From contig CAWGXL010000011.1 in assembly GCA_963826535.1 (NCBI GenBank), positions 64,809 to 128,808 on the forward strand: 64,000 bases of DNA. The letters are read 5' to 3'. A program made the position numbers and the translations under genes. This document shows positions 16,307 through 58,086 of this stretch, in pieces. The DNA is from an uncultured bacterium. GTDB taxonomy: Bacteria > Patescibacteriota > Microgenomatia > Levybacterales > UBA12049. Position 1 is the stretch's first letter; the number at the start of each line of letters is the position of its first letter. Below the pieces are notes generated by a model. That model was given only the letters and a program-made list of their open reading frames with translations, was not told where the DNA came from and searched no databases.

Positions 16307-19300
16307 TTACTTCTTTGCAATCTCTTCTTCTTCAGAAAGCGCTTTTGGTTCTTCTTCTTTTTTTATTCCCACTTCAACTTTTTCCTCTTTTTCATCTCCC
16401 AGCTTCAACACTGAAATTACTGTTTTTGCGGCTTTAAGTTTGACGTTGAGATAATCACTTATTTCCTGATAAGAGAATCCTCCCAAAAGCAGGAAAGGTA
16501 GAATGGTTCCCACTTTCTTGAGTCCATCATTTTTCTTATCTGTCTCAGGTGCGAGTAAAAGTGCGAGGGTTTCTTTTATTTCCTCAATCTCTTTCGTAAT
16601 CCATTCTATCCTTCCTTGTTTGTCGTCATTGAAGCCGAAAGGTACAGGAAGAGTCCGATAATTTTCTTCCCACATCTTTTCGATTTCCGTATAATCTTTT
16701 TGCGTAACGGATTGCAGTTTATTACTTTGGGGTACATCAGTTGCATTAATTTGAGAATGTGGCGAAACAGAATGTTTTGCTGCGGTTAAAATACTATCCG
16801 CAGTCTTGTCGCCTTTTTGACTTTTTTCGATAAGCTTCTGGCGTAGATTTTCTATTTTTTGCCGATCAGCCGGTATTTGGACATTTGTTGGGGTGGCGAG
16901 GTTTGCAAGTATTACATGCTCTTTGTGCATTTCTGTGATTTGAGATTTATCCCTAGCCAGAGACATGGCTTCATAACGGACTATATCTTTCATGGTCGGG
17001 AGCTTTAGTTCAACCATAGCCAGGATTTCATTGGAGACCTCGGGTGTGACAATGTTGGTGGCCGCAAATGAGGGGGTTGATATTTCAACTGAAGGCGCTT
17101 CTATATTGACTGCCATGGTTTGGGCTGCTTCCGCGTGTTTGGTTGCAACAGATACTTTGGTTTCTTCGTCAAGGGAAATGGATTTGAGAACATCTTTGGC
17201 TGCATCTTGTTTGGTTTGTAGATAAGAGACGATTTCGGATTGAGAGAAGCCTCCGACTAAAAGGAAGGGCAGAATGTTGGCTACTTCAGAGAGTCCCTGA
17301 TTTACTTTATCCTGATCAGCAGAGTTTAAGAGATTGGTTAAATTACCAATTTTCTCAATATCATCCTTAATCCATTCAGTTCTTGTTCCGGCCATGCCTT
17401 CAGGGACTTCCATATTATTGTAGTTTTCTGTCCACATTTTCTTGACATCTGCTAATTCTTCGGGGGTGACAGTTTGGATGCGGTTGGTTGAGGGAAGAGA
17501 TATTGCCTGTGGCAAAGCCCCTAAAACAGAAGTAGCTACAGATTCACCTTTAAGTTTTTCTTCTTTTAATTTATCACTTAATTTTTGGATATCTGCGCTG
17601 GTTGTTGATTTGTTCACGCTCAAGAGAGAAGTGGCAAGCTCATTGCCGCTTTGACTGGATTTGGCTATGGAATCATGTAATTTGGTCAGGCGCTCACGAT
17701 CAACCGGCGAGGAGATAGAGGCCGGATTGGCGATTTGTTGCAAAACTTGTCTAACTTTGTTGGTCTGTACAGATTTATTAACTGTTGACATAACAGAGGT
17801 AGCTAGAAGATTTGCGCCCTGCTGGCCTTTGTCAAGTTGTTCTCGGATCTTTTGCAGATCTGCATTTGAGGTACTATCGTTTACAGAAAGAATAGTACTG
17901 GCAAGTTCATTCTTCTTATCTTTTTCCTTAACTAGTATCTCATGTAACTTTGTGAATGCAACACGTTCCGATTCAGAAGTGACTGAAGCCGGATTGACGA
18001 TTTGCAGGAGAACGTTTTTGAAGTCTGATGATTGAGTTGCGCTAAAAGCCGCTTTTTGCATAGCAGAACTGGCTGCATTTAAAACTATATCCGCAGTTGC
18101 GTTGCCTTTTTGGCTTTCTTCGAGGAGTTTTTCCCGGAGCTTATCAAATCTAACTCTTTCTGTACTGACAGTAGCTGACGCAGGGTTGGCAATTCTTTCA
18201 AGTGTTTCGCGAACTTTTTGCACCTCTCCAAGTTGCGATTTGTCTCGGGACATTGACATGGTCTCAAAGCGGGCAATATCACGCATTCTGGGTAATTTCA
18301 ATTCAACCATAGCCAGGATTTCATTGGAGACCTCGGGTGTGACAATGTTGGTGGCCGCAAATGAGGGGGTTGATATTTCAACTGAAGGCGCTTCTATATT
18401 GACTGCCATGGTTTGGGCTGCTTCCGCGTGTTTGGTTGCAACAGATACTTTGGTTTCTTCGTCAAGGGAAATGGATTTGAGAACATCTTTGGCTGCATCT
18501 TGTTTGGTTTGTAGATAAGAGACGATTTCGGATTGAGAGAAGCCTCCGACTAAAAGGAAGGGCAGAATGTTGGCTACTTCAGAGAGTCCCTGATTTACTT
18601 TATCCTGATCAGCAGAGTTTAAGAGATTGGTTAAATTACCAATTTTCTCAATATCATCCTTAATCCATTCAGTTCTTGTTCCGGCCATGCCTTCAGGGAC
18701 TTCCATATTATTGTAGTTTTCTGTCCACATTTTCTTGACATCTGCTAATTCTTCGGGGGTGACAGTTTGGATGCGGTTTAAGGAAGGGACACTGATGCTT
18801 GCCTGCTGGGCGGCTGTTGCAAGTACATCTGCGGCAACCGATTCACCTTTAGTCTTGGCTTCATTTAATTTGTCACTTAATTTTTGGATATCTGCGCTAG
18901 TGGTTGATTTATTTACAGATAACAGCGAGGTCGCAAGTTCATTTCCCTTCTGACTTTCTTTTGTCAGGGCTTCATGCAGTTTAGTCATTTTTTCTTTATT
19001 AATAGCTGTAGCTGTGGCGGGGTTGGCGATTTGTTGGAGAACGTCTTTGACTTTGGTCATGTTTTGTGATTTTTGTAAACTGCTACTAATTGTTGTAAGT
19101 ACTTGTGAAGACATAGCAGAGTCTTTTGATTGCTGGAGTTTTTCGCTGATTTTTTCAAGCTCTGTTTGTGTTGTGATATCTTTTACTTGCAAGATTTGGC
19201 CTGCTAATTGGTTGTTATTCTCTTTACTTTCGTGTGCAAGCATGTCGTGGAGTTTGGTCATCTTTTCACGATCAGATGAATTGGTAGCTGAAGCCGGGTT

Positions 19301-21523
19301 GGCGATTTGCTGGAGTACGCTTTTAACTTTGGTCATGTTTTGTGCTTTCTGCAGGCTACCATTGATTGTAGAAAGCAACTGCGAGGACATGGTAGATTCT
19401 TTTGATTGCTGGAGTTTTTCGCTGATTTTTTCAAGTTCTGCTTGTGAAGTAGTATCTTTTACTTGCAATATAGAGGATGCAAGTTGATTATTATTCTCTT
19501 TACTTTCATGTGCAAGCATGTCGTGGAGTTTGGTCATCTTTTCACGATCAGATGAATTGGTAACTGAAGCCGGGTTGGCGATTTGCTGGAGTACGCTTTT
19601 AATTTGGGTAGCTCTGACTGCATTGCTTACCTGAGAGGCTGCTGAGTTGCCAACTGTGCTCTCTTTTACTAATTGATCCCTTATTTTGTCAAGTTCATTT
19701 GCTGTGGTTTTGTCGTTAACAGAGAGAATTGAGCTGGCTAATTGATTACTCTTTTCTTTACTTTCCTTCGAGAGCATGTCATGGAGTTGAGACATTCTCT
19801 CACGATCTACAACATTTGATGTTTGGGCCGGATTGGCAATTTGTTTTAGTATGTTTCTCAAATGTGAATCTGAGGCTTGAACGTTTCTTTGTGATTGATT
19901 ATTGGCGGCTGAATTTATAGCATTTAAGATAGTTGTCGCTACGAGATTTCCCTGTTGAGCCTCTCTGACTATTCTTTCATTCATATTTGCATATCTTTCA
20001 CGTTCTATCGTTGAGGTAACCGCGACCGGGTTACCAATTTTTTCAAGCATTTCACTCATCTTCATTACTTCTTGTCTTTGGCTTGCGTTATTGGATGAAA
20101 GCGCGGTGTCGTATCTGGCGATATCCCGCATTGTAGGAAGCGGGATACTTGCAAAACTTAAAACTTCGGCATTTATTTGAGCATGTGGAACAGAATATGT
20201 TAGAGCGGTACCAGCTCCCTGAGTTTCTCTAATTATTTCTTTGGCTGCGCCGCCAGGCCTCATAGTAGGAGTGAGTGCAATTGGAATATTCACCGACTTT
20301 TTTGTAAATGGTAAAGTCAAGGCAGTGCCTCCAGGCTGAGATCCGGGCGGATATCCTGTAGGTGAAGATGGCGGAACCATCTTATTGCCTAATAAAGTAA
20401 CAAGGTTTTTCATCATTGCGTTATCACCGGAAAAGTTAGCAGCGTAGTCTAAAAAGATTTGCAATAAAATCCAGGGAAGTAGAATAACGATCCATAACAT
20501 TATTAGCGCAACAACATAAAGCATGAAAGTCTCTGTAAGATTAACACTGTTGGTCGGAGTAACGAACTGCCTGGGTCCTCCAAGGAGAATATTTACAGCG
20601 GTGGGATATATAATTTTAGTCGGGTCTTGAATAGCGGGATTGACGAACTGTAAGGGAATTGCCTGTCTCCACATAAATACTAAACCCTGGAGGAAAATCG
20701 CGAAGAGCGGACCATATAATAGCCAGCGGAAGAATTCTCCAATCCAAATCTTGCCAGTATTGCGAACCGGATAAAATAAAAGCAGGAGTGGGAATACCGG
20801 GGATACTATTATAAAGAACCATAAAATTATTTTTCTAATCAATAATATGCCTACCATAACATAGTACGTAAGCGCGGTTAATTTAGTCAGTAATAATGAA
20901 ATAAAGGCTGATTCAGCGTTATAATCACCAAGCAGGCGTAATCCGACAAAGTCCTGGTAGTTCCAACCTACAAAGAGTAAGTCTTGATTGGATATGCAGT
21001 CAGGGGGACAATTAGTGGTGCCTGAACGTAAGAAGAATCCTTGTATTAGATCGGTGAATTGATATAGAAATTGCAGTATTGCGTATGACAAGGCAATTAA
21101 TATCAGTACAGCAGTAAATCTGGGAATAAAACGCATAATAGTGAGACTTCTTCCTCTAGAAATTATAATTATCATGGAGGTTGCTAAAATAACCAATATT
21201 AGAAGAGGCAAAACAATATAGAGGACTATTGTCCACCAAAATTGTGCCAATGGATTAGCCGCGTTGTCGCAATTACGATCGGCTACCTTGGTTACACAAA
21301 CCCATTGGTAATTTAGCAATGTCCAGTTTAGGACGTAACCTGATCGAGCAGCGTTTTTGCCAATAAAGGTTACTTCAGGGTCTACTACCCATAACCCTGC
21401 GGCGGGGGATGCTGTTTGTTGTTGGGCCGGGGCGGGAGCTTGTGCATTGGTAACTGCTACCGGATAAACCAAGGAAACAAAACAATATATTATTGCAAGA
21501 AAAATGGGCAGAAATTTTTTCAT
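16307..21523 (-). CDS. Giant (1738 aa) polytopic membrane protein with an array of about 92-aa helical repeats; N-terminal region VirB6/TrbL-like in topology
   Basis: Signal peptide, then at least 6 TM helices in the first roughly 400 aa. Then about 10 repeats of QIANPAxxTNSSDREKMTKLHDMLAHESKENNNQLASSIL...KISEKLQQSK. A large module (IQTVTPEELADVKKMW...LPFLLVGGFSQSEIVSYL) is present 3 times, two of them identical at nucleotide level. Confidence 0.7.
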   Translation of the reverse strand: MKKFLPIFLAIIYCFVSLVYPVAVTNAQAPAPAQQQTASPAAGLWVVDPEVTFIGKNAARSGYVLNWTLLNYQWVCVTKVADRNCDNAANPLAQFWWTIVLYIVLPLLILVILATSMIIIISRGRSLTIMRFIPRFTAVLILIALSYAILQFLYQFTDLIQGFFLRSGTTNCPPDCISNQDLLFVGWNYQDFVGLRLLGDYNAESAFISLLLTKLTALTYYVMVGILLIRKIILWFFIIVSPVFPLLLLFYPVRNTGKIWIGEFFRWLLYGPLFAIFLQGLVFMWRQAIPLQFVNPAIQDPTKIIYPTAVNILLGGPRQFVTPTNSVNLTETFMLYVVALIMLWIVILLPWILLQIFLDYAANFSGDNAMMKNLVTLLGNKMVPPSSPTGYPPGSQPGGTALTLPFTKKSVNIPIALTPTMRPGGAAKEIIRETQGAGTALTYSVPHAQINAEVLSFASIPLPTMRDIARYDTALSSNNASQRQEVMKMSEMLEKIGNPVAVTSTIERERYANMNERIVREAQQGNLVATTILNAINSAANNQSQRNVQASDSHLRNILKQIANPAQTSNVVDRERMSQLHDMLSKESKEKSNQLASSILSVNDKTTANELDKIRDQLVKESTVGNSAASQVSNAVRATQIKSVLQQIANPASVTNSSDREKMTKLHDMLAHESKENNNQLASSILQVKDTTSQAELEKISEKLQQSKESTMSSQLLSTINGSLQKAQNMTKVKSVLQQIANPASATNSSDREKMTKLHDMLAHESKENNNQLAGQILQVKDITTQTELEKISEKLQQSKDSAMSSQVLTTISSSLQKSQNMTKVKDVLQQIANPATATAINKEKMTKLHEALTKESQKGNELATSLLSVNKSTTSADIQKLSDKLNEAKTKGESVAADVLATAAQQASISVPSLNRIQTVTPEELADVKKMWTENYNNMEVPEGMAGTRTEWIKDDIEKIGNLTNLLNSADQDKVNQGLSEVANILPFLLVGGFSQSEIVSYLQTKQDAAKDVLKSISLDEETKVSVATKHAEAAQTMAVNIEAPSVEISTPSFAATNIVTPEVSNEILAMVELKLPRMRDIARFETMSMSRDKSQLGEVQKVRETLERIANPASATVSTERVRFDKLREKLLEESQKGNATADIVLNAASSAMQKAAFSATQSSDFKNVLLQIVNPASVTSESERVAFTKLHEILVKEKDKKNELASTILSVNDSTSNADLQKIREQLDKGQQGANLLATSVMSTVNKSVQTNKVRQVLQQIANPASISSPVDRERLTKLHDSIAKSSQSGNELATSLLSVNKSTTSADIQKLSDKLKEEKLKGESVATSVLGALPQAISLPSTNRIQTVTPEELADVKKMWTENYNNMEVPEGMAGTRTEWIKDDIEKIGNLTNLLNSADQDKVNQGLSEVANILPFLLVGGFSQSEIVSYLQTKQDAAKDVLKSISLDEETKVSVATKHAEAAQTMAVNIEAPSVEISTPSFAATNIVTPEVSNEILAMVELKLPTMKDIVRYEAMSLARDKSQITEMHKEHVILANLATPTNVQIPADRQKIENLRQKLIEKSQKGDKTADSILTAAKHSVSPHSQINATDVPQSNKLQSVTQKDYTEIEKMWEENYRTLPVPFGFNDDKQGRIEWITKEIEEIKETLALLLAPETDKKNDGLKKVGTILPFLLLGGFSYQEISDYLNVKLKAAKTVISVLKLGDEKEEKVEVGIKKEEEPKALSEEEEIAKK
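17009..17487. repeat. Perfect about 479-bp direct repeat inside the giant gene, copy 1
   Basis: Region 17009-17487 is identical to 18302-18780 (offset 1293 nt). This was checked line by line. Antisense ORFs 16992..17225 and 18102..18518 translate identically. Confidence 0.85.
18302..18780. repeat. Perfect about 479-bp direct repeat inside the giant gene, copy 2
   Basis: See copy 1. Encodes the duplicated module VTPEELADVKKMWTENYNNMEVPEGMAGTRTEW.... Confidence 0.85.
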
Positions 21524-25402: not shown

Positions 25403-26581
25403 ATGGCAGTATTTAAGAGAGACAAGCCACATGTAAATATTGGAACTATCGGTCATGTAGATCACGGAAAAACAACGTTAACTGCTGCAATCACTACCGT
25501 CCTTTCAAAAAAAGGATTTGCTCAGGCTAAAAAATACGAGGATATTGATAATGCCCCTGAGGAAAAGGCGCGTGGAGTCACGATTAACATTTCTCACATG
25601 GAATATGAGACCGAGAAGCGTCACTATGCTCATATTGATGCTCCGGGACACGCTGATTATATTAAGAACATGATCACAGGCGCCGCTCAAATGGATGGCG
25701 CGATACTTGTTGTCTCAGCTCCCGACGGACCTATGCCGCAAACCCGGGAACATATTTTATTAGCTTATCAAGTAGGAGTTCCTTCAATTGTTGTTTTTCT
25801 CAACAAAACCGATATGGTTCAAGACGCGGAACTTCTTGAACTTGTTGAAATGGAAGTGCGCGAACTACTAACCAAGTATCACTTCCCAGGTGACAAAACT
25901 CCAATAATCCGAGGGTCAGCCCTCAAAGCTCTTGAAGGAGATGCAGAAGCCGAAAAACAAATCCTGGAACTTATGAAGACAGTAGACGAATATATCCCAA
26001 CGCCGGTAAGACCATTGGACAAGCCGTTACTTATGCCGGTTGAAGATGTCTTTTCTATAAAGGGACGCGGAACTGTAGTTACCGGAAGAATTGAAAGAGG
26101 GCTTGTCAAAGTCAATGATACTGTAGAGATCGTCGGAATCCGCGATACCAAACCAACAGTAGTAACCGGAGTTGAGATGTTTAAGAAGCAACTTAATGAT
26201 GGACAGGCAGGCGACAATGTAGGTCTTCTACTTCGAGGACTCGAAAAAGATGATGTTGAACGCGGGCAAGTTGTTGCTAAACCCGGATCCATTACACCGC
26301 ACACTGAATTTGAAGCTGAAGCTTATGTGCTTACGAAAGAAGAAGGCGGGCGTCACACACCATTCTTTACCGGTTATCGTCCACAATTTTATATTCGCAC
26401 AACAGATGTGACCGGAAACGTTGCTCTTCCACAAGGTGTTGAGATGGTTATGCCGGGAGACAGTACAAAGATGACAGTGAAGCTAATTGTACCCGTCGCT
26501 TTAGAAGAAGGACAAAGATATGCAATCCGCGAAGGTGGAAGAACAGTTGGAGCAGGAGTTATAACCAAGATAATTAAATAA
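25403..26581 (+). CDS. tuf: Elongation factor Tu
   Basis: [23 protein letters not shown]1 motif, DAPGH and NKTD motifs. 392 aa. Confidence 0.95.
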
Positions 26582-26629
26582 ATAGTACTTTAACAGTCTG
26601 TTTGTCCTGATTAAATCGGGTTTGGATAT

Positions 26630-32031: not shown

Positions 32032-32341
32032 AATATTGCAAGGAAAAGTTATATCTAATAAAATGAAAGGGACTGCGGTTGTCGAAGTATCCCGAATTTT
32101 TCCTCATCCGTTGTATAAAAAACTTCTAAAAAGAAGCAAAAAATATAAAGTTGATACCAAGGGCGAGAAACTGGAAGTTGGCAAAATAGTGAAAATAATC
32201 GAAACCAGGCCAATTGCCAAAGACAAACACTTTGCGATTTATACAAACGCAAAGAAACCTGTTGTGTCAGCAACAAAAGAAAAAACAACTAAGAGTTTGT
32301 TTGAAAAGCCAAAAAAGTTGTTATCTCGACCGAAGCGATAG
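32024..32341 (+). CDS. rpsQ: 30S ribosomal protein S17
   Basis: KVISNKMKGTAVVEV...KYKVD...ETRPI S17 pattern. Confidence 0.85.
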   Translation: MSKILQGKVISNKMKGTAVVEVSRIFPHPLYKKLLKRSKKYKVDTKGEKLEVGKIVKIIETRPIAKDKHFAIYTNAKKPVVSATKEKTTKSLFEKPKKLLSRPKR

Positions 32342-32453
32342 CGTAGTGGAGAGATCTCACCCCACAAAGTTGCTAGGTGGTATGAGATTCACCCAAAGGG
32401 TACTATCCACTTTGTGGTGTCGCCTAGACTCCTGTTGGTCGCTCGGAATGACA
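32342..32453. repeat. MITE-like palindromic element, copy 1 (truncated left end), family with GTCATT...AATGAC termini
   Basis: Region 32342-32453 is a near reverse-complement match to 46229-46341 (shared cgtagtggagRgatctca and ggtcgctcgRaatgaca blocks). It starts at the rpsQ stop codon. Confidence 0.55.
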
Positions 32454-32493
32454 AATTTTAAACAGACTCTAAGATAAAAAAGGAGAAAAAAGT

Positions 32494-39005: not shown

Positions 39006-39116
39006 TGTCATTCCCCTGGACAGGGGAATCCAGAAGATATAAATAACTCTTCCTTATAAAGGTTAAATAGAAAAACTTATTTTTACCTACTGGATTCCCG
39101 CGTTCGCGGGAATGAC
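39006..39116. repeat. MITE-like palindromic element with termini tgtcattccc / gggaatgac and internal hairpins
   Basis: Terminal inverted repeats at 39006-39015 and 39108-39116. Internal hairpins attcccctg-gac-aggggaat and attcccgcg-ttc-gcgggaat. Intergenic between the kinase gene and map. Confidence 0.55.
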
Positions 39117-39135
39117 GTTGGTCTGCTTTAGACGA

Positions 39136-42919: not shown

Positions 42920-43360
42920 ATGAGAAAAAATGTTTTTGGAAGACAACTGAAAAGAGATTCAAATGAGCGAAAAGCGCTTTTTAAAAACTTGCTAAGCTCA
43001 TTAGTGCTGCATGAAAGTATTACAACATCACATGCCAAAGCAAAAGCGATCAAGCCTAGTGCCGACAAACTCATTACCTATACAAAAAAAGGTGGCCTTC
43101 ACGCCTATCGAATGCTTGAACCGGAATTATCAACTGAGGCGGTCAAAAAGCTATTAAATACAATTGCGCCAAGATTTACAAACCGACATGGAGGTTATAC
43201 GAGAATTATCAAAGTAGGGAATAGACTCAAAGATAATTCCAGTGAGGTTATTCTTGAATGGACAGAAAAAGGCATAAATCCAAAGACGGCAAACCTAGAA
43301 TCAGCAAGTGAGAATCCCCAAAAAACCGCTAAGAAAGAAACGAAGGTAAAGAAAAAATGA
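42920..43360 (+). CDS. rplQ: 50S ribosomal protein L17
   Basis: GRQLKRDSNERKALFKNLLSSLVLHESITTS L17 pattern. Confidence 0.85.
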   Translation: MRKNVFGRQLKRDSNERKALFKNLLSSLVLHESITTSHAKAKAIKPSADKLITYTKKGGLHAYRMLEPELSTEAVKKLLNTIAPRFTNRHGGYTRIIKVGNRLKDNSSEVILEWTEKGINPKTANLESASENPQKTAKKETKVKKK

Positions 43361-43794
43361 ACAGAGTAGCAACACAACCAACAAAAGCAAATCAAATAAA
43401 AAGAGAATGGCATTTAGTTGATGTCAAAAATGAAACGCTTGGTAGAATTTCGACCAAGATTGCACTAATGCTTATGGGCAAAAGCAAGCCCTACTTTGTC
43501 CGCAATCTTGACTGCGGTGATTATGTCGTTGTCCTCAATTCCAAAGCTGTCCGGCTCACCGGCAAAAAAGAAGAAAATAAGGCATATAAGCGTCACTCCG
43601 GCTATCCCGGTGGTTTCAGATCTGAGACAGTGCGTGAATTACGTGACCGCAGGCCTGAAGATATAATTAAAAAAAGCGTAAAAGGGATGTTGCCGGATAA
43701 TCGTCTCAAAGACAAAATGTTAGCCAGATTATTTGTTTTTCCCGGAGAAGAACACACTTATAAAGATAAATTAAAAATTCAAAGCACCAAATAA
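43357..43794 (+). CDS. rplM: 50S ribosomal protein L13
   Basis: REWHLVDVKNETLGRISTKIALMLMGK L13 start. 4-nt overlap with rplQ. Confidence 0.9.
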   Translation: MNRVATQPTKANQIKREWHLVDVKNETLGRISTKIALMLMGKSKPYFVRNLDCGDYVVVLNSKAVRLTGKKEENKAYKRHSGYPGGFRSETVRELRDRRPEDIIKKSVKGMLPDNRLKDKMLARLFVFPGEEHTYKDKLKIQSTK

Positions 43795-43898
43795 CAAATA
43801 ATATCAAAATTCAAATAATTAAATCCAAAACATGTTTTGATATTTGAATTTAAATATTTGTATTTATTTGGAATTTGTAATTTATATAATACAACTAT

Positions 43899-44381
43899 AT
43901 GGTAGATACAGAACAAAAGACAACGAGTACAAAGAAACCTCTTAAGAGGGAGTTTGTCTCTGCAACCGGCAAACGCAAAGAAGCGGTCGCTCGTGTGCGG
44001 TTATATCAATTTGTCAAAGAAAGCCTTACATGGGCAAACGTACCTGTTAAAAAGGGTGAAATGTTAGTAAATCAAAAACCGATTGCAGAATATTTTCCAA
44101 GCACAGCTGAACAGCATCGGTATACAGAACCACTGCGTATTACTAACGCACATCAAAATAATTACGCCTTTACGATCAAAGTCGTAGGCGGCGGGCATGC
44201 AGGACAACTTGATGCGGTAATTGCGGGGATTTCTAATGTGCTACAAAAACTTGATCCTGAAAAATACCGCCCGATTTTAAAGAAAAAAGGGTTTCTTACC
44301 CGCGACGCGCGGATCAGACAGCGCCGAAACATAGGCACCGGGGGTAAGGCACGGCGTCAGAAACAGTCTCCAAAACGGTAA
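43899..44381 (+). CDS. rpsI: 30S ribosomal protein S9 with N-terminal extension
   Basis: C-terminal GGGHAGQ...RRNIGTGGKARRQKQSPKR S9 signature. Confidence 0.85.
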   Translation: MVDTEQKTTSTKKPLKREFVSATGKRKEAVARVRLYQFVKESLTWANVPVKKGEMLVNQKPIAEYFPSTAEQHRYTEPLRITNAHQNNYAFTIKVVGGGHAGQLDAVIAGISNVLQKLDPEKYRPILKKKGFLTRDARIRQRRNIGTGGKARRQKQSPKR

Positions 44382-46205: not shown

Positions 46206-46228
46206 AAAGGCCCTATTATGCATCAATT

Positions 46229-46341
46229 GTCATTTCGAGCGACCAAAGGGAGTCGAGAAATCTCATCGTACATGCAAAATCAAATTCTGTCTTTTCGGTC
46301 TAATCAGTGGTATGAGATCCCTCCACTACGGTCGGGATGAC
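46229..46341. repeat. MITE-like palindromic element, full copy (tgtcatttcgagcgacc ... ggtcgggatgaca)
   Basis: Imperfect terminal inverted repeats. Reverse-complement match to 32342-32453. Confidence 0.55.
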
Positions 46342-46350
46342 AAAAGGAGA

Positions 46351-50199: not shown

Positions 50200-50290
50200 A
50201 TTTTGATTAAGAAGTATGCCTTATTTAAACACACAAGGCGGGTATTTACAAGCAAAAATTAAATAACTACTCACTTAGTAACCAAAAATT

Positions 50291-50383
50291 GTCATTGCGA
50301 GGAGCACCCCGCTGAGCGGGGGCGACGAAGCAATCTCCATTAACAATGGGATTGCCGCGCTCTCCCGATTTAATCGGGATCGC
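50291..50383. repeat. MITE-like palindromic element (gtcattgcgag ... ctcgcaatgac) containing the cccgatttaatcggg hairpin
   Basis: 11-nt perfect terminal inverted repeats. Internal hairpins cccgctgagcggg and cccgatttaatcggg. Lies 69 nt upstream of metG. Confidence 0.55.
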
Positions 50384-50451
50384 TCGCAATGACATCCAGT
50401 GAGCAGGTAGAATATGAAACCTTGTGTATCTAGCTTCAGTCTGATAAAATT

Positions 50452-51906
50452 TTGCAAATGGCCAAGTTTTATATTACCAATGCTATCCCCTACGTAAACG
50501 CTCGTCCTCATATCGGTCATGCGCTGGAATTTGTGCAGTCGGATTGTTTGGCACGCTATCATTCGTTGCTGGGGGATGAAGTTATGCTTTTATGCGGGGG
50601 CGACGAGAATGCTTTAAAAAATGTCCAGGCAGCTGAAAAAGCGGGAAAACCTATTCAGGAATTTGTCGATACTAATACGAAAGTTTTTTTAGATTTATCC
50701 AAAAAACTCCATGTGCAATTTGATGCCTGGCAAAAAGGCAGTGATATGAAACACCACGCCGCAAGTCAGGACTTGTGGGAACTCTGTGCAAAGAGCGGAG
50801 ATATTTATAAAAAATCCTATAAAGGGTTGTATTGTGTGGGCTGTGAGGCATTTTATACGGAAAGTGAGTTAGATGAGAATGGGGAATGCTTTGAACATCC
50901 CGGAAAAAAGCTTGAAATTGTTGAAGAGGAAAATTATTTTTTCCGGCTCTCAAAATATGAAAGCCAGATCCGCGGTTTAATTGAAACAGATAAATTAAAA
51001 ATAGTGCCATTAGCTCATAAAAATGAAGTTCTAGCTTTCTTAAAAAGAGGGCTGCAAGACTTTAGCATCTCCCGAAGTGATGAGCGAGCTAAAAATTGGG
51101 GAGTGCCTGTTCCCGGAGATAACTCGCAAAGAATGTATGTTTGGTTTGATGCATTGAATATATATATGAGCGGGATAGGTTTTCCAAGTGATGAAAAAAC
51201 TTATAAAAAATGGTGGCCTGCCGATGTCCATGTGATCGGAAAAGGAATTATCCGATTCCATGCCTTATATTGGCCGGGAATTTTACTTTCGGCAAAACTG
51301 GCTTTGCCCAAATCACTTTTTGTGCATGAATACTTTACAGTAAATGGACAAAAGATGTCCAAAACGCTTGGGAATGTAATTGATCCTTTCGAACTAATAC
51401 GGAAATATGGGGCCGAATCATTAAGATATTATTTTCTCGCGAAATTTTCACCTTTTTCCGATGGGGATTTTTCAGAAGAGAAATTTATTGATGTATATAA
51501 TGCTGATTTAGCAAATGGACTGGGGAATCTGATTGCCCGCGTAGCTAAATTGTGCGAAACTATTGATTACCAACAAATGGGTTCGGAAAGTCGCGTAAGC
51601 GAACATGTAATTGAGGACAGCGAATATACCAAAGCATTACAAGAATTCAAGTTTAATGAAGCGGTTAGCTCAGTATGGAGAAAAATTACGGCACTTGATC
51701 AATACATAAATCAAGAAAAACCTTGGGACTTAATAAAAACAAATAGTCAGAAATTGCCGACAATACTAGCACACTGCGTCGATCAAATACAAGAAATTAG
51801 TCTACTTCTAAAACCTTTTATGCCCCAAACATCGGAAAAGATTCTGGAGCAATTCAAGGGGCCGAAAATAGTTGCCCAGAAACCTCTGTTTCCAAGAATA
51901 AAATGA
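50452..51906 (+). CDS. metG: Methionyl-tRNA synthetase (short form, no C-terminal tRNA-binding domain)
   Basis: NAIPYVNARPHIGHALE (HIGH region), zinc knuckle CVGCEAF...C, KMSKTLGN. Confidence 0.9.
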   Translation: MQMAKFYITNAIPYVNARPHIGHALEFVQSDCLARYHSLLGDEVMLLCGGDENALKNVQAAEKAGKPIQEFVDTNTKVFLDLSKKLHVQFDAWQKGSDMKHHAASQDLWELCAKSGDIYKKSYKGLYCVGCEAFYTESELDENGECFEHPGKKLEIVEEENYFFRLSKYESQIRGLIETDKLKIVPLAHKNEVLAFLKRGLQDFSISRSDERAKNWGVPVPGDNSQRMYVWFDALNIYMSGIGFPSDEKTYKKWWPADVHVIGKGIIRFHALYWPGILLSAKLALPKSLFVHEYFTVNGQKMSKTLGNVIDPFELIRKYGAESLRYYFLAKFSPFSDGDFSEEKFIDVYNADLANGLGNLIARVAKLCETIDYQQMGSESRVSEHVIEDSEYTKALQEFKFNEAVSSVWRKITALDQYINQEKPWDLIKTNSQKLPTILAHCVDQIQEISLLLKPFMPQTSEKILEQFKGPKIVAQKPLFPRIK

Positions 51907-52763
51907 TCGATGCGCACTGCCATCTCAATTTCCACTCATTTGAAAAAGATTACGACGAGGTAGTCAAGAATGCTATTGCTGCAGGCGTCACAAAAATAAT
52001 TAATGCAGGCACTCAAATAAGCTCAAGCAAATGGGCTGTTGATTTGGCAGAAAAGTATGAAAATTTATATGCGGTGGCCGGTGTTCACCCGCATCACGCG
52101 GATAAAATCCCCCCAACCCCCTTTACTAAAGGGGGCAAGAGGGATTTGGGGGCTGCCGAAGGTAATTGGTTGGAAGACCTTGAGAATATTGCCAGACACC
52201 CAAAGGTTGTTGGAATTGGTGAATGCGGACTGGATTATTTTAACTATCAATCAAACGGGATCGTTGAACCAAGAATACAAAAAAAAATATTTATTGATCA
52301 TTTAGAACTTGCCCATAAATTAAAACTTCCTTTGCAAATTCATAGTAGGGATGAGAGTGCAAGACAGGATATTTTAGAAATACTTAAATACCATTATGAT
52401 TTGCTGCAACCTGTGCCTGGGATGTTCCATTGTATGGCTGGGTCAATAGATTCGTTAAAAAGAGTACTTGAATTAGGATTTTATGTGGGTTTTGATGGCA
52501 ATATTACATATAAAGGAATACCATCCGGTGAACCGGAGCCGTTAGTAAAGTTAGTAGAATACGCACCACTTGACCGAATAGTAATTGAAACAGACAGCCC
52601 TTATCTCCCACCTATTCAATATAGAGGCCAAAGAAATGAGCCTAAATATGCTATAATAACAGGAGAATTCGTTGCTAAAGTCAAAGGTGTTCCATTTGAA
52701 AAAGTAGTGGAGCAAACAGACAAGAACGTATATACTGTCTTTAGTAAGTTAAAAACATTATGA
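51903..52763 (+). CDS. tatD: TatD-family metal-dependent hydrolase with an internal about 13-aa insertion
   Basis: MIDAHCHLN, GVHPHHA and GECGLDY TatD motifs. Extra segment IPPTPFTKGGKRD is encoded by a GC-rich hairpin. Confidence 0.8.
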   Translation: MIDAHCHLNFHSFEKDYDEVVKNAIAAGVTKIINAGTQISSSKWAVDLAEKYENLYAVAGVHPHHADKIPPTPFTKGGKRDLGAAEGNWLEDLENIARHPKVVGIGECGLDYFNYQSNGIVEPRIQKKIFIDHLELAHKLKLPLQIHSRDESARQDILEILKYHYDLLQPVPGMFHCMAGSIDSLKRVLELGFYVGFDGNITYKGIPSGEPEPLVKLVEYAPLDRIVIETDSPYLPPIQYRGQRNEPKYAIITGEFVAKVKGVPFEKVVEQTDKNVYTVFSKLKTL

Positions 52764-54253
52764 CTTCCTTTTTTTCAAAAATATTCCAGCGGTATCCGAT
52801 AAAAACACGGCGTTCATTGGAATTATTGCCTGGGTTTTTGGTTTGGACCGTTATATTATTTCCTATTTGGGGATCATTTCTAATTCCGACAACTGTTGCC
52901 TATTTTATTCTCTTTTTCGATATCTTCTTCTTCTATAAATCATTTTCCCTGAGCATAACAGCCTCAATTGCATCCAAAAAAATAAGAGAGACAGAAAAAC
53001 AAAACTGGTTTGAAAAAGTTAAACAACTCCCAAATGAGAATCAGGTCCACCACGTTTTGGTAATTCCCAACTATAAGGAGAAGACGGAAAAAATCCGGAC
53101 AACATTACAAGCATTAGCCCGACAATCATATCCAGCAACGCGTCTACATGTTGTTCTTGCAATGGAATTGCGGGAAAAAGAAGCACATGCCCGAGCGGCT
53201 ATACTTATTAAAGAATACAAACACGTCTTTGGCAGTATTTTTGCGACTTATCATCCGGATTTACCCATGGAAGTAAAAGGCAAATCATCCAACGAGGCAT
53301 TTGCCGGCAGAGCTGCTTATCATGAGCTTTTCGAAAAGGGGCATTTAGATATTAATTATGCAACTGTATCCTCGGTTGATGCTGATTCAATTTTTGATAA
53401 AGAATTTTTTGCTCATTTGGCGTATAAATTTCTAACTGACAACAAACGATATAACAAATTCTGGCAATCAGCAACTGTATACCACAATAATGTGTGGCAA
53501 GTACCTGCTCCTACGCGAATTATTTCTTTTTTTGGGAGCCTATGGCGTACAGCGTTATTAGTCCAAGGAGACAGGCTTATTCCCAATTCTACCTATTCGC
53601 TTTCATTTAAATTGCTTAAAGAAATAGACTTCTGGGATGTAGATGTTATTCCGGAAGATTACCGCATATTCTTTAAAGCTTTTTTCCGGATGAAGGGCCA
53701 GATTTGGGTTGAACCAATTTTTCTCAAAACTTCCATGGACACGGCGCAGTCTGTAGGGTATATAAACAGTTTAAGGAATAAATATGATCAGGAACGAAGA
53801 TGGGCATGGGGCGTATCGGATGACCCATTATTTATTCAATGGTGGCTGACTGTCCCCGGCTTACCGTTCGTGAGAAAAACTCTGCTCCTATACCATGTTC
53901 TACTCGACCATATTCTCTGGCCGACTAATTGGTTCATAGTAACTATTGCAGCCAATATCATGGCTCTGTTAAATCCTGTATTTTCAAGGACATCGCTCGG
54001 ATATTACTTGCCGCAGTTAGCAGGGGTTCTTTTAAATACATGCCTGATAGCTCTGGTTGTAATGTTGTATATTGATTATAAGAACCGGCCGGAAAATGCT
54101 AAGTTACCACTCAGGCGCAAATTGTTATTTCCGCTCGAATTTCTGCTCATGCCGGTTGTGGGTTTTTTCCTGTCAGCTCTACCAGCTCTAATATCTCATA
54201 CCCAACTTATGCTCGGAAAAAGGATGGAATATAAAGTGACTGAAAAAGTGTAA
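52760..54253 (+). CDS. Integral-membrane processive family-2 glycosyltransferase (cellulose/chitin-synthase-like)
   Basis: VDADS (DxD) and QERRWAWG (QxxRW) motifs, flanked by N- and C-terminal TM helices. Confidence 0.6.
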   Translation: MTSFFSKIFQRYPIKTRRSLELLPGFLVWTVILFPIWGSFLIPTTVAYFILFFDIFFFYKSFSLSITASIASKKIRETEKQNWFEKVKQLPNENQVHHVLVIPNYKEKTEKIRTTLQALARQSYPATRLHVVLAMELREKEAHARAAILIKEYKHVFGSIFATYHPDLPMEVKGKSSNEAFAGRAAYHELFEKGHLDINYATVSSVDADSIFDKEFFAHLAYKFLTDNKRYNKFWQSATVYHNNVWQVPAPTRIISFFGSLWRTALLVQGDRLIPNSTYSLSFKLLKEIDFWDVDVIPEDYRIFFKAFFRMKGQIWVEPIFLKTSMDTAQSVGYINSLRNKYDQERRWAWGVSDDPLFIQWWLTVPGLPFVRKTLLLYHVLLDHILWPTNWFIVTIAANIMALLNPVFSRTSLGYYLPQLAGVLLNTCLIALVVMLYIDYKNRPENAKLPLRRKLLFPLEFLLMPVVGFFLSALPALISHTQLMLGKRMEYKVTEKV

Positions 54254-57769: not shown

Positions 57770-58086
57770 AATAAATCCTCTTATCCGACCCTATATCTTA
57801 TCCAAATGTACGCTTGGAACGAGCACGCAAAGGCGCCAATTCGGATATAGGGTCTTTGTAAGGTAATTATAGATTATCTATGTAAATATATCAATATATA
57901 TCAAGAATACTAAATTAATCAAAGTGGCTCAAAATTCTATGTCTCAATATTATAATCCGGATCGCAAATTAAATCCCTCCCAACTTCCCTTTAGAAAAGG
58001 CAGAGGAAGGATTGCAAGTTCCTTAAGCCTTGATTGTTTTCTGAATCGGTAGAAGCTATAATAAATTTGATTGATTATAAGTCTGA

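Follow-up and report, generated by a model that had tools for sequence, protein, structure and literature searches.

A palindromic element in an internal loop of a Patescibacteria TatD protein, probably derived from a small mobile repeat

How does a palindrome come to lie in frame within the gene of a housekeeping protein, and is it an inserted element or a coincidence of codons? The question is raised by the tatD gene of an uncultured Patescibacteria genome, located in a 64-kb stretch of contig CAWGXL010000011.1 (hereafter the window; all positions are given in window numbering). The gene (51903-52763, plus strand) encodes a TatD-family hydrolase of 286 aa (Pfam TatD_DNase PF01026, E=2.7e-74), whose named close homologues belong to Patescibacteria, e.g. 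Candidatus Roizmanbacteria. The gene starts before metG (50452-51906) has ended, and an open reading frame (ORF) for a family-2 glycosyltransferase (52760-54253) begins within its last codons. The palindrome is probably a non-autonomous mobile element, similar in kind to the REPs (repetitive extragenic palindromes) and Rickettsia palindromic elements (RPEs) known from inside genes, that was inserted once in this lineage and kept as it was in frame, free of stops and placed in a disordered loop; it would now be decaying and contribute nothing to TatD function.

The palindrome in the tatD coding sequence

The core of the element is a hairpin at 52117-52135, CCCCCTTTACTAAAGGGGG, with an 8-bp stem and a 3-nt loop (CCCCCTTT-ACT-AAAGGGGG), exactly as the original prediction described it. 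The window has a single copy of this 19-mer, and in 100 dinucleotide shuffles no match with ≤3 mismatches appeared. The predicted extent of 19 nt proved too small, since the core forms the centre of an imperfect palindromic element of 43 nt at 52105-52147 (AAATCCCCCCAA-CCCCCTTT-ACT-AAAGGGGG-CAAGA-GGGATTT), the boundaries of which are uncertain by a few bases; neither the core nor the full element is assigned to a strand. Its arms, 21 nt each (52105-52125, AAATCCCCCCAACCCCCTTTA, and 52127-52147, TAAAGGGGGCAAGAGGGATTT), are complementary at 17 of 21 positions (81%), corresponding to four mismatches. One inverted repeat with 21-nt arms and ≥17 matches is present in the window, while 40 dinucleotide shuffles gave 0.03 on average. 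Hairpins with a stem of ≥8 bp yielded 20 entries in the 64 kb, about 16 of them distinct, so a perfect 8-bp hairpin alone is not rare and the significance of the structure rests on the extended arms and on the match to a repeat family described below. The element has a G+C content of 51%, compared to 38% for the window.

An insertion relative to TatD orthologs

Read in the tatD frame, the element encodes I69-P-P-T-P-F-T-K-G-G-K-R-D81 (IPPTPFTKGGKRD), located between the HPHHADK motif (ending with K68) and the invariant W89. We searched a collection of 5.8 billion sequences for orthologs, kept the best 120 hits and determined the loop length in 80 metagenomic orthologs. Of these 80, 41 have 22 aa between HPHH and GIGE, compared to 38 aa in the window protein (+16 aa). 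Most orthologs keep the short form K-x3-4-W, among them five with about 75% identity (P0003, P0004 and P0006-P0008). The closest ortholog, P0002 (76% identity, encoded on contig L201), reads KVSEGGEEGNW in place of KIPPTPFTKGGKRDLGAAEGNW, and at the DNA level it falls 33 nt (11 aa) short of the window gene here. The insert of the window protein is absent from the other 119 proteins of the best 120 hits, and the tatD operons of the orthologs lack the element. Judged from these comparisons, the loop segment is an insertion in this lineage, as had been predicted. An alternative alignment, in which P0002 retains only the right arm of the palindrome, was tried by hand and was no better than the simple insertion.

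Aligned with the DNA of P0002, the inserted segment is most economically parsed as 13 codons for I69-D81 (52107-52145, plus strand) between K68 (AAA) and L82 (TTG), the exact boundary of which we infer; on the same parse the loop would have read roughly K-L-G-A-A-E-G-N-W before the insertion, with some ambiguity about the exact ancestral state. The lengthening of about 13 aa given in the original prediction thus fits the number of added codons, but the gain depends on the reference and ranges from 11 aa (against P0002) to 16 aa (against most orthologs).

The enlarged loop follows barrel strand 3 and comprises residues 69-88 (52107-52166, plus strand). In an AlphaFold2 model of the protein, with a mean predicted local distance difference test (pLDDT) score of 91.3, these residues form a low-confidence coil without secondary structure on an otherwise confident triosephosphate isomerase (TIM) barrel, and the score falls below 50 at residues 73-76 and 79-86.

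The gene order at L201 differs from that of the window in another respect: two small genes are located between metG and tatD (1970-2552 of that contig), the second of which carries a HicB antitoxin domain, whereas metG and tatD of the window overlap directly without them.

Membership in a dispersed repeat family

The palindrome belongs to a repeat family with the consensus AAATCCCCCC-N3-CCCCCCTTT-N3-AAAGGGGGG-N2-3-GGGGGGATTT and a length of 44-47 nt. We screened viral contigs and a set with one genome per species, and each scan yielded at least 120 loci; the counts are lower bounds, and the taxa named are samples. The bare core CCCCCTTTNNNAAAGGGGG was found at at least 120 viral-contig loci. 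Among the matches listed, 117 of 151 viral cores (77%) have, within 18 nt, AATCCCC on the left side or GGGGATT on the right, an arrangement expected by chance in about 0.2%, while both flanks accompany only 3 of the 151. The common unit in viral contigs is therefore asymmetric and consists of AAATCCCCC, a short spacer and the hairpin. Such units often occur as inverted pairs around a spacer, frequently with GGCTTCGCCGCC, for example in L151 (988/1076, 1647/1693 and 4667/4718), L114 and L156. The short form with two flanks, which is the architecture found in the window, is present at at least 120 loci of the one-genome-per-species set. Among the matches listed it occurs in Nitrospirota, Thermodesulfobacteriota/Syntrophales, Methylomirabilota, Dehalococcoidia, Nitrospinota and Planctomycetota, and further in Poribacteria, Methylococcales (Proteobacteria), Hyphomicrobiales and one metagenome-assembled genome of Promethearchaeota, in hosts with a G+C content from 30% to 69%.

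Written with the family flank, the tatD element is AAATCCCCCC-AA-CCCCCTTT-ACT-AAAGGGGG-CAAGA-GGGATTT. The left flank (52105-52114) matches the consensus at 10 of 10 positions and is followed by a 2-nt spacer (AA). The core fits the family core CCCCC(C)TTT-N3-AAAG(G)GGGG, with runs one base shorter than in the consensus, and the right flank, CAAGA-GGGATTT, agrees with GGGGGGATTT at 8 of 10 positions; it fits the relaxed pattern of the genome scan and misses the strict consensus. The window copy looks like a decayed member of the family, and with its shortened C and G runs and four arm mismatches it is probably old and inactive. This match to repeats of unrelated genomes and phage contigs, flanks included, bears out the original view that the segment is a hairpin element and not ordinary loop sequence.

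Two other explanations can be weighed here. The first regards the segment as ordinary lineage-specific variation of the loop, with the hairpin arising by coincidence from Pro and Gly codons. It can point to the number of perfect 8-bp hairpins in the window and to some orthologs with long non-palindromic loops, but it has to account for an inverted repeat that is found only 0.03 times per shuffled sequence and for the 25 fixed bases of AAATCCCCC-N3-CCCCCTTT-N3-AAAGGGGG, by which the element is a member of the family. We consider the probability of such a coincidence negligible; flank statistics, genome-scan matches and the rarity in shuffles effectively refute it. The second explanation holds that the palindrome formed locally, through template switching or repair primed by a hairpin, in a loop that was already variable. 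The closest ortholog, with its GGGGG run and slightly extended loop, would be in line with this, as would a short hairpin just upstream, in the HPHHAD codons. However, a local duplication fails to explain why the left flank and the spacing match the consensus of at least 120 unrelated genome loci, with 10 of 10 positions in the flank, and a local origin is therefore highly improbable.

[quoted passage not shown]

The viral contigs with AAATCCCCC hairpin units (L081-L200, e.g. L151, 1-6500, and L188, 1-5000) encode a portal-like protein in 33 loci. Going by ORF translations rather than a hidden Markov model (HMM) search, most of these loci appear to be Mu-like phages, with major head, protease/scaffold, MuB-like and Mu transposase-like proteins. 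The units are located between structural genes, often as inverted dimers, and one copy in L188 lies in frame in a scaffold/protease-like protein of 387 aa (...NPPCPPLEKGG...).

Family copies within other genes

Copies inside genes are not peculiar to tatD. We found that 43% of 122 genome copies lie in stop-free frames of ≥200 aa, compared to 78% of random 46-nt windows from the same loci, so the family is depleted in genes but far from excluded from them. A Pfam comparison of five host ORFs identified each as a genuine protein and placed the element within a domain or between domains, namely in RecJ (DHH domain), LeuRS (editing domain), CobQ (GATase_3), CbiE/T and a P-type ATPase. The PurL protein of L221 is 18 aa longer than 14 orthologs exactly at the element. 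Depending on the frame the encoded peptides read NPPxPPFxKGGxGGF, IPPxPPLxKGGWGDL or KSPxxPLxxRGxxGD, and Pro and Gly together account for 45% of the family-encoded residues.

In Nitrospirota-type genomes, single proteins carry several different repeat-derived inserts: KNPPPPPFDKGGNTHLTPLDRGEESPPLKKGDIGGL and ENPPIPPLEKGGKGGF in CobQ of L218, DVIARSKATKQSEVFEIASPSSRNDS (of the GTCATTGCGAG family) and QIPSIPPLLKGGWRGF in CbiE/T of L238, and others in a restriction/methylase-like protein of L216 and in L204. RecJ of L202 and CobN of L248 contain runs such as KSEVRSQKSEVRSQ and GSGVRSQN, which look like translated short tandem DNA repeats and would be a further type of repeat-derived insert in these genomes.

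The TatD loop as a recurrent insertion site

Among the 120 TatD orthologs, internal insertions of ≥4 aa are confined to the loop that carries the insert. About 39 sequences, roughly a third, have an extension here, ranging from 4 to 44 aa and unrelated in sequence and length. Many of the extensions are palindromic at the DNA level. A GTCATTGCGAGG...CCTCGCAATGAC palindrome is present in L001, L002 and L009, where in L009 it is nested within an older non-palindromic extension; GTCATCCTGA...TCAGAATGAC was found in L022, L031, L005, L060 and L045, GTCATTCTGG...CCAGAATGAC in L073, CTGCCTGCCGGCAGGCAG in L030, L079 and L066, and TTGTCATTTC...GAGATGACAA in L027. In P0067 the loop contains a variant unit of the same family as the tatD palindrome, AAAATCTCCCC-TAA-CCCCTCTTT-AAT-AAAGAGGGG. 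Most of these palindromes fold with z values of about -3 to -6 relative to shuffled sequences, with few exceptions (e.g. L045, -0.58). At least six palindromic sequence types in the loop imply at least six independent events in this one loop. Long loops without a palindrome, which the original prediction had regarded as contrary evidence, do exist (L013 and a clade with the sequence PEVVEETEG), but not in the nearest relatives of the window protein, and many other long loops are palindromic.

The simplest explanation for the recurrence is tolerance. Where the GTCAT families inserted in TatD, no common target motif was recognised. A small hairpin is encoded by the HPHHAD codons just upstream of the insert and could, less simply, direct insertions to this site.

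Alternatively, the insert could have been domesticated, such that the peptide rich in Pro, Gly and Lys now aids TatD function, for instance in substrate access or partner binding; this would be compatible with an origin by insertion. In TIM barrels the loops after the beta strands lie on the catalytic face, and by this general geometry, rather than from the model, the loop after the barrel strand would be placed on that face. The retention of some extension by about a third of the orthologs and a frame that is still open despite four arm mismatches also speak for domestication. Against it stand the lack of any relationship in sequence and length between the extensions, their absence from the nearest relatives, a model that gives the insert neither structure nor confidence, and the occurrence of the same type of peptide in unrelated proteins. 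We regard domestication as unlikely, and the window copy most likely has no role in TatD function.

A small hairpin, CTGCCT(C/G)GCCGGCAGGCAG, occurs alone in the TatD loops of L030, L079 and L066 and nested in the GTCATTGCGAG element of L001, a parallel to CCCGATTTAATCGGG in the window; this suggests a modular, nested relation between small hairpins and larger palindromes.

Structure of the element at the nucleic acid level

The RNA of 52105-52147 is predicted to fold into a two-tier hairpin, in which an internal loop separates the outer from the inner stem and the 3-nt loop caps the latter, with an energy of -26 kcal/mol. One might therefore suspect a functional hairpin in the metG-tatD-glycosyltransferase operon, acting in RNA pausing, processing or attenuation or as an antisense terminator. 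On the minus strand a scan of 51700-52900 revealed a weak alternative terminator-like stem followed by ATTTTAT at the element, and intergenic copies of the family are often inverted dimers between genes, similar to REPs. On the other hand, the same scan found no intrinsic terminator on the plus strand at the element, the sense strand being devoid of a T run; the fold of the element region is unremarkable compared to dinucleotide shuffles (z = -1.26); no Rfam family matches the 43-nt element, or the other palindromic elements discussed here, at the gathering threshold; and the orthologous operons do without the element. A function of this kind is very unlikely.

Origin of the element

We thus return to a mobile palindromic repeat of the REP, RPE or MITE type, inserted into the tatD gene of a Patescibacteria lineage. 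Its presence or absence among orthologs, the spread of the family across phyla, its occurrence on phage contigs and the foreign G+C content suggest mobility. The family would have spread over many phyla by riding on phage genomes, with copies landing anywhere. Of those landing in genes, the survivors would be copies that keep the frame, contain no stop and fall into a permissive surface loop, with the resulting peptide presumably neutral. The C and G runs would translate into a Pro/Gly-rich coil (PPxPF/LxKGG) which such a loop could absorb. In TatD the only permissive internal site would be the loop after strand 3 (HPHHADK...W), and with one such site independent insertions of different palindromic families would accumulate there across lineages.

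Several observations weigh against this scenario. Neither a target-site duplication nor a fixed length of the element could be defined, and no flanking direct repeat is common to the 122 genome copies. Clustering of 3307 ORFs from 240 loci of about 8 kb each revealed no recurrent transposase beside the copies, although no HMM search for Y1 transposases was made; what recurred next to the copies were structural genes of Mu-like phages in the viral contigs and, in the genomes, generic paralogous families. No Patescibacteria genome is among the at least 120 genome loci listed, and the scan of this genome, which covered the 64-kb window of an 894-kb contig, found one family copy. Likewise, 82 Patescibacteria TatD loci (253 kb) gave no match to the scanned unit and core patterns, which miss the P0067 variant with a T inside each run. 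P0002 has its own 5 additional residues and a GGGGG run at the site, leaving the ancestral state ambiguous, and the modest z value of the predicted fold belongs on this side as well. The family leaves 4.1 of 6 frames open, no more than random 46-mers (3.9 of 6), and copies in ORFs (44-47 nt) show no bias towards lengths that are a multiple of three. Survival in genes looks like filtering, not design. The idea of a family specially built for ORFs, its Pro/Gly-rich coding aside, was dropped after the open-frame test.

A more far-reaching version is conceivable but doubtful, in which tiny, modular and nestable palindromes would be spreading actively through many uncultivated phyla, Patescibacteria among them, and settling in intergenic DNA as well as in surface loops of housekeeping proteins. 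They would comprise the AAATCCCCCC...GGGGGGATTT family, the GTCAT...ATGAC families and small hairpins such as CCCGATTTAATCGGG and CTGCCTGCCGGCAGGCAG, found alone or within the larger palindromes; Mu-like and other phages would carry them between hosts, and an undescribed mechanism would move them. On this reading the hot spot in TatD would reflect true targeting, for example by way of the hairpin in the HPHHAD codons, and not only the tolerance of a single site.

Comparison with known palindromic elements

Both REPs and RPEs have been documented inside genes (PMC3733652, PMC10969869). According to the latter account, which summarises Ogata et al. (2000, 2002), the first-described RPEs are about 150 bp long and were described in Rickettsia. 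They resemble the tatD element as palindromic repeats lying in frame in unrelated housekeeping genes, where the added peptide is apparently tolerated by the fold, and in both systems several families occur in one genome. The family of the tatD element differs in its length of 43-47 nt and its distribution over many phyla and phages, and here a single loop of TatD has received several families in different lineages. Judged without an alignment, there is no evident common sequence.

REPs and REP doublets forming hairpins (REPINs) are G+C-rich stem-loops of 20-40 nt, one end of which has a conserved unpaired part (Di Nocera et al. 2013, PMC3733652; Bertels & Rainey 2011, PMC3116915). The asymmetric unit found here, AAATCCCCC-N-hairpin, is similar, the inverted dimers with spacer (L151, L114, L156) recall REPINs, and in both cases most copies are intergenic while a minority in genes encode extra residues. 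What defines the REP superfamilies, however, is a tetranucleotide, GTAG or CGTC, left unpaired at an end of the stem-loop (PMC3733652), whereas the tatD element ends with AAAT and ATTT, and neither tag is present in or beside 52105-52147 or in the family consensus. No REP-associated tyrosine transposase (RAYT) turned up beside the copies by ORF clustering over about 8 kb per locus, to which no Y1 HMM search was added. Furthermore, many REP families are restricted to one or few species, in contrast to the near-identical sequence across phyla observed here. MITEs such as Correia/CREE, ERIC and QMITE1 of Coxiella (PMC10969869, PMC5896051) share with the tatD element its non-autonomous nature, hairpin formation, occasional translation within a host protein and terminal inverted repeats, here AAATCCCCCC and GGGGGGATTT. 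They are typically 100-400 bp long, their target-site duplications are defined and a parent insertion sequence is known or suspected, whereas the tatD element is shorter than 50 nt and neither duplication nor parent could be defined. RPEs are thus closest in behaviour and intragenic REPs closest in size and shape, and the tatD element represents a new family of a known kind, outside any named family.

In-frame palindromic 'selfish DNA' in proteins was at first described as peculiar to Rickettsia and was then noted for some REPs. The same phenomenon is now seen in a Patescibacteria genome, with a repeat family that is common almost base for base to Nitrospirota, Thermodesulfobacteriota (the former Deltaproteobacteria), Chloroflexota, Methylomirabilota, Planctomycetota and phages. 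Inserts of this type inflate and distort protein alignments and yield spurious small 'hypothetical proteins' with PPFxKGG-type peptides, while their sites flag permissive loops that could be used in protein engineering. At least six palindromic types in one TatD loop offer a natural test of tolerance alone against site targeting, and the means of mobilisation, if found, would define a new kind of very small mobile DNA.

Other repeat elements in the window

The window contains further palindromic elements, which support the original claim that the tatD hairpin belongs to a different family from the hairpin CCCGATTTAATCGGG. The latter is a module of a nested GTCATTGCGAG...CTCGCAATGAC element of 105 nt in the intergenic region upstream of metG (50291-50395; GTCATTGCGAGG...GAAGCAATC...GATTGCCGCG...CTCGCAATGAC), where it is located at 50364 as one of three inner hairpins. 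The surrounding 141 nt (50270-50410) fold at -62.8 kcal/mol. The TatD loops of L001, L002 and L009 contain inserts of the family to which this nested element belongs, and the inserts of L001 and L009 can be aligned with it. CCCGATTTAATCGGG is also present alone, in frame in the gene for ribosomal protein L3 (27350-27364; ...DSADPDLIGTDGES...) and in the C-terminal tail of ribosomal protein L22 (30591-30605; ...NPPAGPDLIGTGGEK...), and a variant is located at 26606-26620, just after the ORF at 25403-26581.

Including the element upstream of metG, the 64 kb contain four elements of the GTCAT...ATGAC type. One is located between ORFs at 39006-39118 (GTCATTCCCC...GGGAATGAC), and two related copies, likewise between ORFs, at about 32318-32455 and 46227-46349 follow the pattern TTGT(T/C)ATC(T/C)CGACC...GGTCGCTCG(G/A)AATGACAA.

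The sole Rfam match of the window at the gathering threshold is a DUF3800-IX RNA on the minus strand (57783-57854, 39.2 bits, E=8e-05). Identical stretches of 29 nt recur 1293 nt apart (17072/18365 and 17462/18755) in an ORF on the minus strand (16307-21523, 1738 aa), which indicates a long internal tandem duplication. Finally, an A+T-rich inverted repeat with 46-nt arms, 74% complementary and separated by a 23-nt spacer, is located at 43772-43886 between the ORFs at 43357-43794 and 43899-44381.

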